IMG/VR virus record: IMGVR_UViG_3300020577_006811
Location: 18,195 to 82,194 of that record
Reading direction: 5' to 3' (one strand)
DNA length: 64,000 nucleotides
Source of the DNA: a virus
Taxonomy: Duplodnaviria; Caudoviricetes
The translations under genes and the position numbers were made by a program. The notes beneath the pieces are model-generated. The model saw only the letters and a program-made list of their open reading frames with translations. It was not told the DNA's origin and ran no database searches. Positions 59,183 to 64,000 of the stretch are shown in pieces. Numbering within the stretch: position 1 is the first letter of the stretch; each line of letters opens with the position of its first letter.

Positions 59183-60096
59183 TGCTGAGCGATAAGACAG
59201 CGGTTACGGGACGCGCGGTGTCAAAGCTTCAAGCCGGGGCTCCTATTGCCGCAATTGTTCCTCAGACAATTGAGGAAGTCTTTCGGCTTGCGGAACTCGT
59301 GTATCAGTCGGGCCTAGCCCCTTATCAGTTGAAGAGTCCGCAGGCCGTGACAGTGGTTTTCCTCAAAGGCCTTGAGATCGGCCTTCCGCCAATGGCGGCT
59401 TTGGAGTCAATCGGTGTTATTAATGGCCGCGCCTGTCTGTACGGCGATGGCATTCCGGCTCTGCTATGGTCACACGGTTTTAAGATCAGAGAGACGTACA
59501 AGAACGCAGACAAGCTTGACGCTTGCATTGCACGTTGTGAAATCACGCGCCCGGATGGCGAGATGTATGAGTTTGAGTATTCCGCGCAGGACGCCAAAGA
59601 CAATGGTCTGTGGGATACGCGGGAGAAGATTGACGGCAAGCCCAATAAGTCACCTTGGTTTGTATACAAAAAACGCATGATTAGAATGCGTTGCCGCGGA
59701 TGGCTGGCGCGTGACTGTGCGGCGGATGTGTTGAAAGGCATTCCGATCTACGAGGAGCAAGCCGACATTGAACTTGGCCGCCAAGAGTATCGGGAAGTGA
59801 ACGCGCCGTTGCCCGTCCCCGACATCCCTGATGAGCCCGCGGCCGACATTAATCAGGACCAACTCCCCCTGGAAATGAACCAGGACGCGCCCGAGCCGTT
59901 GCCGAACCCCAAGGCCTACCTTGCGCATCTTGAAGAAGAAATGTCGGTGGCGACCACGGCGGATGTTTTGTCGGAGATATGGGAGTCACACACGCAAGCG
60001 TCGGATGGGCGCCTGAGCCGGGAGCATCAAGAGGCTGCTGAGGCGCTTCATGAGAAGCATGAGAAGCGGCTTTCGAAAAACAAGAAGGGCGCCTAA
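59179..60096 (+). CDS. recT: RecT-family ssDNA annealing recombinase
   Basis: GLEIGLPPMAAL..I.VINGR..LYGD; AK..GLW; W..Y.KRM..MR.R.W..RD..ADVLKG. Confidence 0.85.
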   Translation: MMLSDKTAVTGRAVSKLQAGAPIAAIVPQTIEEVFRLAELVYQSGLAPYQLKSPQAVTVVFLKGLEIGLPPMAALESIGVINGRACLYGDGIPALLWSHGFKIRETYKNADKLDACIARCEITRPDGEMYEFEYSAQDAKDNGLWDTREKIDGKPNKSPWFVYKKRMIRMRCRGWLARDCAADVLKGIPIYEEQADIELGRQEYREVNAPLPVPDIPDEPAADINQDQLPLEMNQDAPEPLPNPKAYLAHLEEEMSVATTADVLSEIWESHTQASDGRLSREHQEAAEALHEKHEKRLSKNKKGA

Positions 60097-60155
60097 TGGC
60101 GCCCTGTCTGTGCTCTTTGACATTGTAACGCTTCCCCTCCCTTCAGGGATGGGCC

Positions 60156-60449
60156 TCAACTGTTGGCTTCTGCGCGCTTCATGCGGCGCATCATTTTGTC
60201 CGTCTCTTCCTCGTCCATTTCCTCGCCCTTGCGGGCAGCGGCCATGAAGCCGGAGAAGGTGATTACGAAGTTCACGTCGGGGCGATGGGCGCCCGTCTGG
60301 ATCTCTTCGGCATAACCCTTTGCGACCAGTGCGCGGCCGACCTTCACGCCGTCGCCGTCGCCCGCAGCGTAGAAGTTGCGATAGCCTACGCGCTTGTTCG
60401 TAAGGCCGAGAGCGTGGCGGATGAAGTGACGTTCTTCTGTGGTCAGCAT
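60156..60449 (-). CDS. Cassette-array hypothetical protein (wHTH-like)
   Basis: ATG directly after junction motif; 97 aa. Confidence 0.75.
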   Translation of the reverse strand: MLTTEERHFIRHALGLTNKRVGYRNFYAAGDGDGVKVGRALVAKGYAEEIQTGAHRPDVNFVITFSGFMAAARKGEEMDEEETDKMMRRMKRAEANS

Positions 60450-60463
60450 CGGTCGGGCCTTCC

Positions 60464-60682
60464 TTATCGGTTCAGAGCTTGGTCGATTTCGTATTGAAAA
60501 GATCGACCTTCTGCGGTCGTTTCCCAGGTCGATACGGCATCCGCTCGGCGGAGCAGTTCGCGAAGCTTCTCGATCTCGTCGGCCGCCTTGTGCGCAACCC
60601 GACACTGGCACTTGGCGTGTTCCGGCGTAAACGGCTCGCGGTCGCATCCAATATCGCGTAGGCGTTCAACGATGTCGTCCAT
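60464..60682 (-). CDS. Cassette-array hypothetical protein
   Basis: Motif-flanked; 72 aa. Confidence 0.75.
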   Translation of the reverse strand: MDDIVERLRDIGCDREPFTPEHAKCQCRVAHKAADEIEKLRELLRRADAVSTWETTAEGRSFQYEIDQALNR

Positions 60683-60691
60683 GGCGGGCCT

Positions 60692-60910
60692 CTACTGTTG
60701 ATCCTGAGATAGTGCGGCGTCACCTGCTGGAGTAGCCACGTACTTGTCTCCAATGCGATGCACAAGTCCACGCGCCTCAAGCTGATCCAGATTGCGCCAC
60801 CATGCGCTGCGCGGGCGGCGCCGGTAGGCGGGCGGGAAGTCGCCTTTGCCGATGCCATCAACCTGCTCGCTGGCGAACTTCAGAACTAAGCGCTGGTGCT
60901 CGGTCAGCAT
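60692..60910 (-). CDS. Cassette-array wHTH-like protein
   Basis: LDQLEARGLV...YVATPAG; motif-flanked. Confidence 0.75.
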   Translation of the reverse strand: MLTEHQRLVLKFASEQVDGIGKGDFPPAYRRRPRSAWWRNLDQLEARGLVHRIGDKYVATPAGDAALSQDQQ

Positions 60911-60921
60911 GCGGGCTTCAC

Positions 60922-61101
60922 TTATCGGTTGCGGCCAGAGGCCATCTGTACTCGGATGCGGCTCATCAATGCGTCGCTCAAAGGCCCACCGTTCTTCGCC
61001 ACGTCGTACACGTCTCGAAGTAGCTCACGAAGCCCTTCGATAACGATATCCTGTGATGCCAGCTTGTCTTTGTCGGTAGCTATTAAATCTTTCAGTGCCA
61101 T
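60922..61101 (-). CDS. Cassette-array small helical protein
   Basis: Motif-flanked; 59 aa. Confidence 0.7.
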   Translation of the reverse strand: MALKDLIATDKDKLASQDIVIEGLRELLRDVYDVAKNGGPLSDALMSRIRVQMASGRNR

Positions 61102-61109
61102 GGCGGGCC

Positions 61110-61316
61110 TCAACTGTTGGTTACGGGTGCGAAGTGCGCCAGCACAATTTCAAGCGCCTGCCGAGACACGCCGACCTCGCAGCCGTCCATGTCCAATTGG
61201 CGCTGGCATGCGCGCAGATTTTCGACCGCCTCGTGCAAGTCGTGTTCTGCGACCTGGGCAAAGTAGTCGTCCTGTTCGCGCTGCTGTTCCAAGTAGGCTT
61301 CGTGTTCGCGGCTCAT
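61110..61316 (-). CDS. Cassette-array small acidic helical protein
   Basis: Motif-flanked; MSREHEAYLEQQ... Confidence 0.7.
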   Translation of the reverse strand: MSREHEAYLEQQREQDDYFAQVAEHDLHEAVENLRACQRQLDMDGCEVGVSRQALEIVLAHFAPVTNS

Positions 61317-61329
61317 CGGCGGGGCTTTC

Positions 61330-61548
61330 TTATCGGTTGTCGTCAACGTCGACTTGGCCCACGCAATGAGGGCAATCGACCACCTCGGGGCAGAGGCCGC
61401 AATCGCAGCGGTCCTCGCACGAAAACTGAAGCACGCGGCCATGGTCGCAGTCGCACTGGTCGCGCAGCTCCATCGCCTGCTCTTCCTCTGCCGTCATGTA
61501 GTACGGATCAGGGTTCGGGTATCCACCGGGCAGGAAGTGTGTCGGCAT
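61330..61548 (-). CDS. Cassette-array Cys-rich acidic protein
   Basis: CDC, C.D.CDCG.C...DCPHC; motif-flanked. Confidence 0.7.
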   Translation of the reverse strand: MPTHFLPGGYPNPDPYYMTAEEEQAMELRDQCDCDHGRVLQFSCEDRCDCGLCPEVVDCPHCVGQVDVDDNR

Positions 61549-61564
61549 CGGTCGGGCCTTTCCT

Positions 61565-61789
61565 TTAGCCCTTACGCAATGGCTTCTGCGGTGCCGTGTA
61601 GGCGGCCACCATCTTGTCAAAGACGGCCTTCGGGATCTCAATGCGCTGAATGCGCTCCTCGCCGACCGGCTGCTCAGACAGCCACACATGATGGCCGTCG
61701 CAGAACAGGCCAAAATCACCAAAATGCCAGTTGTCGCGCTCTAGTGCGATCACGTCTTTCTCGGACTTCGCGGCGTGCATAGACTTCAT
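61565..61789 (-). CDS. Cassette-array hypothetical protein
   Basis: Motif-flanked; 74 aa. Confidence 0.75.
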   Translation of the reverse strand: MKSMHAAKSEKDVIALERDNWHFGDFGLFCDGHHVWLSEQPVGEERIQRIEIPKAVFDKMVAAYTAPQKPLRKG

Positions 61790-61804
61790 GGCTTCGGGGC
61801 TTTC

Positions 61805-62119
61805 TTATCGTTTCTTCGAACGCAAAAGCACGTCGATCTCGCACGCTATCCGAAGGGCTTCCGGGTGGAGCGTCGGCGCAGCGTCCGAAAGCCCCGTCAT
61901 GTAGTCGAGCGACACCCCGAATGCACGGGCAAGCCGCACCGCCGTGTCGACTGTCGGGTTGCGAGCGCGCCCGCTTTCCAGCTCCCAGATGTGAGACTTG
62001 GACAGGCCGGCTCGGTCGGCAACGGCCTGCAAACTCAGATCATGTTTCTCGCGCAGATCGGCGCACCGCTTCGCGATGGACGCAGCAACGTCTTCCGCTG
62101 TGGCGCTGCCGATGGTCAC
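61805..62119 (-). CDS. XRE-family HTH protein (GTG start)
   Basis: LSLQAVADRAGLSKSHIWELESG...NPTVDT..RLA.AFGVSLDY; GTGA overlap with the Acb2-like gene. Confidence 0.85.
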   Translation of the reverse strand: MTIGSATAEDVAASIAKRCADLREKHDLSLQAVADRAGLSKSHIWELESGRARNPTVDTAVRLARAFGVSLDYMTGLSDAAPTLHPEALRIACEIDVLLRSKKR

Positions 62120-62406
62120 GGCGTGTCGTCCGGGAGCTTGATGCGCGCCGGCTGGAAGATTGCGCGGATGGCCCACATGGCGCCTTGCTGAATGTTGGTT
62201 TTCGCCAACGCCAGAGCACGGCCATCGAACTGCGCGCGCCGATCCGCTTCTGGTTTTGAGGCATCGTCCGGCCTGCGAATGCCTGCGATCTTGTCGAGCC
62301 AGCGCAAGTACCGCTCTTCCAGTTCCTTGCCCTCGTTTGCAAGGTCAACATTCGATTGCGACTGCGCAGAGTATCCGGCAACTGGCATGGGCGAGTGTGT
62401 GGTCAT
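62116..62406 (-). CDS. acb2: Acb2-like anti-CBASS cyclic-nucleotide sponge
   Basis: GY..S....DL.N..KEL...R.LA.AKT.IQ.G.M..IRAI.QP matches the Acb2/T4 Vs.4 pattern. Confidence 0.75.
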   Translation of the reverse strand: MTTHSPMPVAGYSAQSQSNVDLANEGKELEERYLRWLDKIAGIRRPDDASKPEADRRAQFDGRALALAKTNIQQGAMWAIRAIFQPARIKLPDDTP

Positions 62407-62416
62407 CGGTCGGGGC

Positions 62417-62713
62417 TCACTTTTCGTTCTTGCGGATGGCGCGAACCGTGCGCTCCGCTACGTTGTCAGAACCGCATTGACCATAGACGATCTGGCAGCA
62501 TCGCTCGCGCTCTGCCTCGACAGCTTCCGCGATCATCTCAGCCATCATGTTCACGTATGCGGGGGCATGGTCCGCAGAGCTGATGCGCAGAAGGAAATCG
62601 TTGGCGCGCTGCTTCGGCGTCCAGCCGCGGCGCTGCTCCTTTGCCATGTCCAGCAACTCCCCGTATGCGTCTGACATCTCTGTGCCGTTGGCGTCTGCGA
62701 AGTAGCGGCTCAT
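62417..62713 (-). CDS. Cassette-array hypothetical protein
   Basis: Motif-flanked; 98 aa. Confidence 0.7.
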   Translation of the reverse strand: MSRYFADANGTEMSDAYGELLDMAKEQRRGWTPKQRANDFLLRISSADHAPAYVNMMAEMIAEAVEAERERCCQIVYGQCGSDNVAERTVRAIRKNEK

Positions 62714-62744
62714 GGCTTCGGGGGCTTTCCTATCGATCACATGA

Positions 62745-63080
62745 TCACATGAAGGCGGGGGAGTTGCCGTCAAATTCTGGCTCGCAGGCGACGGGAGCAC
62801 GCGGCACAGAGCTGATGCCGGTCGAACCGTCATACTCGCGAATGAAGAAAACGCGGCTTGCGGTCCACGCGTACATTGGGAAGCAGTCTGCGCCCCCGTA
62901 TCCGTTGTCATATTCCGCATCAAGCTTCGCTAGGCCGTCTTGGCGGGACAGAATTATGTTCTCGTCAGCGAAAGCCTTGTCGCCATAGGTCCTATCGTCG
63001 TGCTTGCCGACGACGATAGCTTCAATCGGCTCTCCGAACTTCTGCTCCACCGCGATCAGCCACTCTTTGATGTTCGCCAT
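62745..63080 (-). CDS. Cassette-array hypothetical protein
   Basis: Motif at start; YDNGYGGADC...YAWT..RVFF..EYDG. Confidence 0.75.
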   Translation of the reverse strand: MANIKEWLIAVEQKFGEPIEAIVVGKHDDRTYGDKAFADENIILSRQDGLAKLDAEYDNGYGGADCFPMYAWTASRVFFIREYDGSTGISSVPRAPVACEPEFDGNSPAFM

Positions 63081-63096
63081 CGGTCGGGCCTTTCCT

Positions 63097-63465
63097 TTAG
63101 GGGTCGATCTGGTACGTCTCGGAGCCGTCTTTGTGGGACTGATGGCCCCAATGACTGGACGGTCGGTGCTGCTCTTTCGTGGCCGTCACCTTGCCGCCAG
63201 CAGCACGAAGGATCGCGTTGCGCTCGTTTATCAAACGCGTGAACATGTCCTCGTTGAGGGCGACGGCTTTGCGCACGGCTTCGTCAAATTTGATCCGCTG
63301 CTCCATACCGTCGAGCGCCGCACTGATCTGGTCCAGCCGTTTGACGTTGCAGGGGTGGCACCAGTTGCCCCACGCCGATTTCGCGCACTTCTCTCCGCAG
63401 CCGTAGCACTTCACGGTTTTGCGCCCGTGGTAGCTGGGATGCTGCGGGTCTTGATAGGCGATCAT
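63097..63465 (-). CDS. Cassette-array zinc-finger + coiled-coil protein
   Basis: CYGC...WCHPC; motif-flanked. Confidence 0.75.
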   Translation of the reverse strand: MIAYQDPQHPSYHGRKTVKCYGCGEKCAKSAWGNWCHPCNVKRLDQISAALDGMEQRIKFDEAVRKAVALNEDMFTRLINERNAILRAAGGKVTATKEQHRPSSHWGHQSHKDGSETYQIDP

Positions 63466-63486
63466 CGGTCGGGCCTTTCCTGTCGG

Positions 63487-63690
63487 TTAATGCGCGTGCC
63501 TGAGCCTGCGCTGCCAAATGTCCTCGACCGCATCCCTGCGGCGGTCGTGAGCGATCTCACGCCCATCAAGCGTAATGACGTTCCACTTGCGTGCAGAGAC
63601 GCGCTCCAAACTGGCCACCAACGACCCTTGGAAATAGTAGTGCCAGACGTTGCAGGAGCCGTCTGGCGCTGGTGATGGTTCGATTTCCAT
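63487..63690 (-). CDS. Cassette-array hypothetical protein
   Basis: Motif-flanked; 67 aa. Confidence 0.7.
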   Translation of the reverse strand: MEIEPSPAPDGSCNVWHYYFQGSLVASLERVSARKWNVITLDGREIAHDRRRDAVEDIWQRRLRHAH

Positions 63691-63711
63691 ACTCGGGCCT
63701 TCCTTGTCGTT

Positions 63712-63873
63712 TTACGTAGGTACCTTTGGGCGCTCAACTTCCGTGCCGTCCGCGAGGATGACGATGCGTCGGCAGTTCGGGCAGCCGTCGATCTGATTTT
63801 GCACGGCCTCGTCACCCTCAAATGGACACGTAGGCGGACCCTGACAGACAATCACTTCGGCCTCGTCGTCCAT
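63712..63873 (-). CDS. Small Cys-containing protein at the head of the array
   Basis: GGAGAGG SD; CQGPPTC...CPNC; 3' end abuts the junction motif. Confidence 0.65.
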   Translation of the reverse strand: MDDEAEVIVCQGPPTCPFEGDEAVQNQIDGCPNCRRIVILADGTEVERPKVPT

Positions 63874-64000
63874 TGCGTCAGCCTCTCCGTGACGTGTGCA
63901 ATGCAAGGCGGCCCTCGACGCCAGGAACAAGACCCTCGTTCAGCATCGCTGCTGCCTTGCCTTCGTCTCGGTTCATGACGGCAAGCAGCACGAGAGTGAC

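Follow-up and report, generated by a model that had tools for sequence, protein, structure and literature searches.

A 96-aa open reading frame (ORF) of the phage DNA studied here encodes a protein that clearly belongs to the Acb2 family of anti-CBASS sponges, and its gene is fused by a 4-nt overlap to the gene of an XRE-family regulator. The whole stretch that was analysed, hereafter the window, covers the final 64 kb of an IMG/VR virus record of 82 kb with a CheckV completeness of 82%, and it stops where the contig stops. The phage has an alphaproteobacterial host range, and the closest homologues of the Acb2-like protein were found in Hyphomicrobiaceae MAGs. Taking the evidence below together, we think it probable that the 96-aa protein is an Acb2-family CBASS sponge encoded in a long array of small genes, and that the XRE protein is a conserved regulator of the phage lineage whose gene was joined to acb2 by cassette shuffling. 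The coordinates of the features discussed are collected in Table 1.

Table 1. Features of the acb2-XRE locus and of loci compared with it. Positions are those of the window unless a contig or locus is named.
Feature	Position	Strand	Size or basis
acb2-like gene, predicted cyclic-oligonucleotide sponge	62116..62406	-	96 aa; PF24729 59 bits
XRE-family HTH regulator gene, GTG start	61805..62119	-	104 aa; HTH_3 53.5 bits, HTH_31 47.7 bits
GTGA overlap of XRE start and acb2 stop (translational coupling)	62116..62119	-	read from sequence
Junction motif TGAGCCCCGACCG between upstream 98-aa gene and acb2 ATG	62407..62419	-	sequence
Junction motif TAAGAAAGCCCCGAAGCC between XRE stop and next ATG	61790..61807	-	sequence
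Co-directional array, 14 complete small genes and one cut by the contig end	60156..64000	-	ORF list, sequence
Intrinsic-terminator-like hairpin closing the array, 8 pairs (7 G-C) and T-run	60086..60105	-	sequence
phrog_1761-family members	L019:3301-3504, L043:1630-1836, L010:2804-3004, L026:3271-3504		
Early promoters with TTGAC-N2-3-GTCAA	L042:2250-2360, L043:1120-1220, L022:3216-3300, L026:2250-2355		
HAD_PNKP-type phosphatase gene	L024:2980-3501		173 aa
ORF downstream of an Acb2 homologue	L028:1737-1922		61 aa
Second HTH_3 gene, outside the window	G000:C1:10173-10424 (= L048:1411-1662)	-	83 aa

Family membership and fold of the 96-aa protein

The Pfam profile PF24729 (Acb2_Tad1_hairpin) matched the 96-aa protein at 59 bits (E 5.4e-16) over profile positions 1-58 of 58, and a six-frame genome search with the same profile gave 58.7 bits for the acb2-like gene. 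Because the curated gathering cut-off of PF24729 is 27 bits and the full profile was covered, this match is far beyond chance. When all PDB sequences were searched by phmmer, the sole matches were PaMx33 Acb2 (p26, 8h2j/8ixz; E 1.4e-6, residues 8-87) and T4 Vs.4 (E 2.4e-3). The sequence-only reading from which this work started had called the ORF Acb2-like on the basis of a residue pattern that it ascribed to Acb2/Vs.4 ligand pockets; the identification was borne out by these matches, and the pattern is real, being essentially the phmmer midline between the 96-aa protein and PaMx33 Acb2.

The AF2 model of the protein (pLDDT 88.9) is a two-helix hairpin with helices at residues 17-41 and 62-84. 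A Foldseek search of this model against the PDB placed Acb2 (8h2x/8h2j) and Vs.4 (7uq2) at ranks 1-9, all with a probability of 1.0, TM scores of 0.56-0.60, and E values from 4e-3, which is weak as expected for a 96-aa hairpin, to 1e-2; the E value at rank 10 was 1.9. The comparison with Acb2 by HMM and by Foldseek, which had been proposed as a check, was thus positive by both methods. In addition, Y11, K26, R67, and T74 of PaMx33 Acb2 align to Y12, K27, R63, and T70 of the 96-aa protein, and in an alignment of 52 homologues (56-76% identity) Y12 and K27 were invariant while R63 and T70 were at least 90% conserved. The PF24729 match, the PDB sequence matches, the pocket residues, the AF2 hairpin, and the Foldseek ranking together make membership in the Acb2 family secure.

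The Acb2 proteins of PaMx33 (p26; 8H2J, 8H2X, 8IXZ) and JBD67 are in the same Pfam family, have the same hairpin, and are approximately 31-34% identical to the 96-aa protein over the whole length, with all four residues Y11, K26, R67, and T74 kept in the latter. The 96-aa protein differs from them in its alphaproteobacterial host range, in a longer and variable inter-helix loop (residues 42-61), in a conserved N-terminal M-T-D/T-H-x-P-x-P-V of its subfamily, and in the fusion of its gene to an XRE gene. T4 Vs.4 (7UQ2) has the same fold and the C-terminal helix motif A-K-T ... M-W-A-x-R-A-x-F-Q-P, but its identity is only approximately 23% and, unlike T4 Vs.4, the 96-aa protein has both the Arg and the Thr. 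Although Tad1 (7UAV, 8SMD) has in common the hairpin domain that defines PF24729, Foldseek reached it only at E ~4.4 and TM 0.31, and the extra Tad1 domain is missing from the 96-aa protein.

Small-gene array and its junctions

The acb2-like gene is at least the seventh and the XRE gene at least the eighth of at least 15 small genes arranged head to tail, and the promoter of this array lies beyond the contig end. Near acb2 (62400-62500), neither a minus-strand promoter-like site nor an inverted repeat was found. The ORFs of the window beside acb2 and XRE gave no match to a known anti-defence family in Pfam, PHROGs, or the ESM Atlas. From this layout, acb2 would be a single cistron in the transcript of a long array of small genes, early or accessory, with its end at the terminator near 60086, and translation of XRE would be coupled to that of acb2 via the GTGA overlap. 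The terminator-like hairpin is G+C-rich and lies between the array end and convergent plus-strand genes ending at 60096; termination there may be bidirectional.

Variants of TAA-(A)GGAAAGGCCCGACCG-ATG were present at 12 of the 14 array junctions (60156-63930, minus strand), and the motif reaches from the stop codon across the Shine-Dalgarno site to the start codon. At the upstream junction of acb2, where 10 nt of the motif separate the upstream stop codon from the acb2 ATG, a genome-wide motif scan recovered GCCCCGACCGATG. The two junctions without the motif are that of acb2 with XRE, at which the GTG start of XRE (62119-62117) and the TGA stop of acb2 (62118-62116) share the GTGA, and the first junction (63878-63930), which reads TGA-CGCA-ATG. 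The overlap had already been noted in the earlier reading and is read directly in the sequence; the further statement that this is the sole internal junction without the motif was right as to its absence there but overlooked the first junction, which lacks it as well. That acb2 and XRE make up one cassette agrees with what we found, since the two genes are physically fused and flanked by the junction motif on either side.

The same junction motif was also observed 3' of XRE homologues on unrelated contigs (L042-L046 and L022). Its recurrence on unrelated contigs suggests, from sequence comparison, that throughout the lineage it serves as a cassette boundary or as a site of recombination.

The XRE gene and its changing upstream neighbours

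The XRE gene, another element of the earlier reading, is real, with an HTH_3 match of 53.5 bits. We collected 78 homologues, many at 83-92% identity and 103-106 aa long, and the GTG start is backed by dozens of these 103-106-aa homologues with the same start (M/V-T-I-G-S). Its PDB relatives were generic XRE regulators only (DdrO, ImmR, 434 repressor, and SinR), and no solved Aca resembling it was found in the PDB search.

The same XRE protein (P0121), which differs only at the start residue, is encoded on 21 other contigs. There the gene upstream encodes a 79-aa protein, a 67-68-aa phrog_1761 protein, or a 101-aa protein, and is joined to the XRE gene by a 4-nt overlap or with a single base between stop and start. 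The same 4-nt NTGA overlap ties XRE homologues to other upstream genes. Among more divergent homologues, those of 88-79% identity sit behind a 66-67-aa phrog_1761 protein, one of 80% identity behind a 77-aa member of the phrog_1761 family, one of 72% identity behind a HAD_PNKP phosphatase gene, and one of 59% identity behind a 133-aa protein; in L022, no gene was called upstream of XRE. Genes downstream of XRE are also variable, and the junction motif is present there. Because an identical XRE is found behind differing upstream genes, the regulator is best described as conserved and its upstream slot as swappable, and we take as a lead that the array is mosaic and that XRE is one conserved cassette of it, with the start codon of XRE fused to an exchangeable upstream gene. 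Acb2 is the only known anti-defence protein among the products of the upstream-slot genes.

Viewed from the Acb2 side, an XRE/HTH_3 gene was found downstream of Acb2 homologues (39-72% identical) at none of 13 loci, and the acb2-XRE pair never recurred when 13 Acb2-homologue loci and more than 20 XRE loci were inspected by tblastn and Pfam neighbour labels. A profile search with the Acb2 alignment yielded three loci in genome contigs and six in viral contigs, which is too few for enrichment statistics. The 5' end of XRE would be a slot for recombination, occupied by different small genes from phage to phage, and, if so, acb2 and XRE would have been linked by cassette shuffling and would not be obligatory partners. 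The constant 4-nt overlap of XRE with the gene before it could reflect a functional need rather than mere shuffling. An integrase gene lies near XRE in several relatives, and none was found in the 82%-complete contig.

In L028, an ORF of 61 aa that contains an HTH-like segment and a CxxC pair lies downstream of an Acb2 homologue (58% identity), and its start is the GTG within a GTGA that overlaps the stop codon of that homologue.

These data bear on the proposal of the earlier reading that XRE acts in an Aca-like way, which would make it a dedicated partner of acb2. A classic Aca gene closes a short operon, and the promoter beside its acr gene carries inverted-repeat operators. If acb2 and XRE were an operon of the Acr-Aca type, XRE would bind operators at the promoter that drives acb2, would shut it after an early burst, and would mark a counter-defence slot upstream of itself. 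The placement of XRE is as for Aca proteins: the gene of this small HTH protein immediately follows a bona fide anti-defence gene, shares an operon and a transcript with it, and is translationally coupled to it by the GTGA. An identical XRE behind variable small upstream genes also fits the concept of finding Acrs through Aca, in which one HTH gene stands behind variable small genes (PMC7648647). Further points in its favour are that one alternative partner in the slot is a HAD_PNKP-type phosphatase and that early promoters of XRE-bearing arrays in relatives have TTGAC-N2-3-GTCAA palindromes overlapping the -35 box. However, XRE is absent at 13 of 13 Acb2-homologue loci, so that, viewed from Acb2, the association is not a conserved one, and there is no promoter or operator beside acb2, the pair being internal to a long polycistronic array at a depth of at least seven genes. 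The genes downstream of XRE vary as much as those upstream, which makes the whole array mosaic, and no proven anti-defence gene occurs among the other partners. The palindromes could equally belong to divergently encoded RHH-like or resolvase-like proteins, which are equally good candidates for binding them. Lastly, the PDB search brought up no solved Aca, sequence similarity to known Aca proteins was not detected, and the PDB matches are generic. The dedicated partnership is therefore not supported, and we regard an Acr-Aca-type operon at this locus as rather unlikely.

The palindromes of the relatives are adjoined by a divergent gene that encodes either a 55-56-aa RHH-like protein (R-L-K-K-M-x-S-L-A-L-D-P) or a 180-190-aa resolvase-like protein. 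No such palindrome was found in the 82-kb contig. Given the lack of a local promoter or operator and the internal position in the array, a general early-operon regulator role for XRE is more likely than a dedicated Aca-type role. Most likely, XRE would bind DNA and so repress or modulate the array's early promoter, although any regulatory target is one that we infer. A second HTH_3 gene of the phage (Table 1) adjoins a divergent intergenic region of approximately 500 nt, and its product is a candidate for the main early switch regulator.

A broader form of the same idea is that XRE marks a dedicated swap-in counter-defence slot in alphaproteobacterial phages, such that any gene coupled to its start would be an anti-defence gene with its dosage tuned by XRE. 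We consider this unlikely. If it were true, the slot genes would be those of Acb2, the 66-77-aa phrog_1761 proteins, HAD_PNKP, and the 79-, 101-, and 133-aa proteins; XRE would be an Aca-type anchor for non-CRISPR counter-defence, and phrog_1761, with its 5190 representatives, would be a new anti-defence family. The HAD_PNKP-type phosphatase gene of L024 has a one-base overlap with the start of the 72%-identical XRE homologue, and an integrase gene lies approximately 0.5 kb downstream of this pair. T4 polynucleotide kinase-phosphatase repairs tRNA cut by anticodon nuclease, and the L024 HAD_PNKP may be an RNA-repair counter-defence gene in the same slot.

Among the genes fused to the start of XRE, those of the phrog_1761/5120 group of helical proteins of 66-77 aa were the most common. 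The phrog_1761 family has 5190 representatives at 50% identity and the conserved motif F-A-Y-x-H-L-P ... L-L-E-A-K-D-x-x-V-R-A; some of its proteins have two copies in tandem, and its AF2 model had a pLDDT of 96. The motif looks Acb2-like by eye, and the only hint of kinship with Acb2/Tad1 was that PF24729 is found in 18% of the members of the ESM-Atlas neighbour cluster. The identification of phrog_1761 as a minimal Acb2/Tad1 hairpin was unsupported by Pfam (no match for the query, and one of 55 family members at E 0.04), by hhalign against the Acb2 alignment (probability 0.2%), by reciprocal hmmsearch between phrog_1761 and Acb2 (at most 3 bits), and by Foldseek and wide VIA-align searches with the phrog_1761 model, which returned no Acb2/Tad1 and, at a best Z of 7.2, unrelated helical proteins. 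A PF24729 search of the L010 record also gave no match at E values up to 10. Remote kinship of phrog_1761 with Acb2/Tad1, as between tiny helical hairpins, is conceivable.

Predicted ligands and significance of the Acb2-like protein

Structures and mutants have assigned Y11 and K26 of Acb2 to the cyclic-dinucleotide pocket and R67 and T74 to the cA3 pocket (PMC10312549). All four of these mutagenesis-tested residues are matched in the 96-aa protein by Y12, K27, R63, and T70, in agreement with the retained ligand-pocket positions of the sequence-only reading. JBD67 Acb2 keeps all four residues and binds cGAMP and cA3, while T4 Acb2, which has no equivalent of the Arg, does not bind cA3; one of R67/T74 alone gave no cA3 binding in T4 Acb2, for which helix geometry also mattered (PMC10312549). 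By homology with PaMx33 and JBD67 Acb2, the 96-aa protein would be a homohexamer, with three dinucleotide pockets and two trinucleotide pockets, that traps CBASS cyclic dinucleotides, for example 3',3'-cGAMP, between Tyr12 and Lys27 of paired protomers, and cyclic trinucleotides (cA3 and cAAG) would be held by Arg63 and Thr70 of three protomers. The CBASS effector of the host would then stay unactivated. Both hexamer formation and ligand binding of the 96-aa protein are properties that we infer.

The 96-aa protein might instead be an Acb2-fold sponge for a signal other than those of CBASS, such as 3'cADPR from type I Thoeris. Inhibition of Thoeris is reported for ten Acb2 homologues, and Acb2_43 binds 3'cADPR and does not inhibit CBASS; this activity involves an additional N-terminal strand that has a His (PMC12393519). 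Consistent with such a role, the N-terminal M-T-D/T-H-x-P-x-P-V is conserved among the 52 homologues, with H4 above 90% and V9 invariant. Yet the stacking Tyr and the Lys in the cGAMP pocket have both been kept, as have the Arg and Thr in the cA3 pocket; all four are invariant or nearly so, and this retention argues against a Thoeris role. Moreover, the AF2 model is without terminal beta strands of three or more residues, and among solved structures the CBASS-blocking PaMx33 protein is the nearest relative. A non-CBASS signal thus appears quite improbable, and a CBASS sponge remains the reading that we prefer. A HigBA-like two-gene module, with XRE as the antitoxin or partner and acb2 as a mere replacement of the toxin, accounts for a small upstream gene followed by XRE with a 4-nt overlap but is very improbable, since the upstream partners are unrelated to each other and to known toxins, no toxicity of Acb2 is seen in published work (PMC10312549), and the XRE of L022 is without a called upstream gene.

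The Acb2 assignment adds a member to a large known family, of which 9141 homologues have been counted in phage scaffolds (PMC12393519), and widens the range of these well-studied anti-CBASS sponges to include phages of alphaproteobacteria of the Hyphomicrobiales type. Because the four ligand residues are intact, the hosts are predicted to use cGAMP- or cA3-type CBASS signalling. An Aca-like role of XRE and an anti-defence role of its neighbours by association are both unproven. The variable slot before the conserved XRE is a modest lead: a gene conserved up to identity, with a changing upstream neighbour, may serve as a bait slot for new counter-defence proteins.
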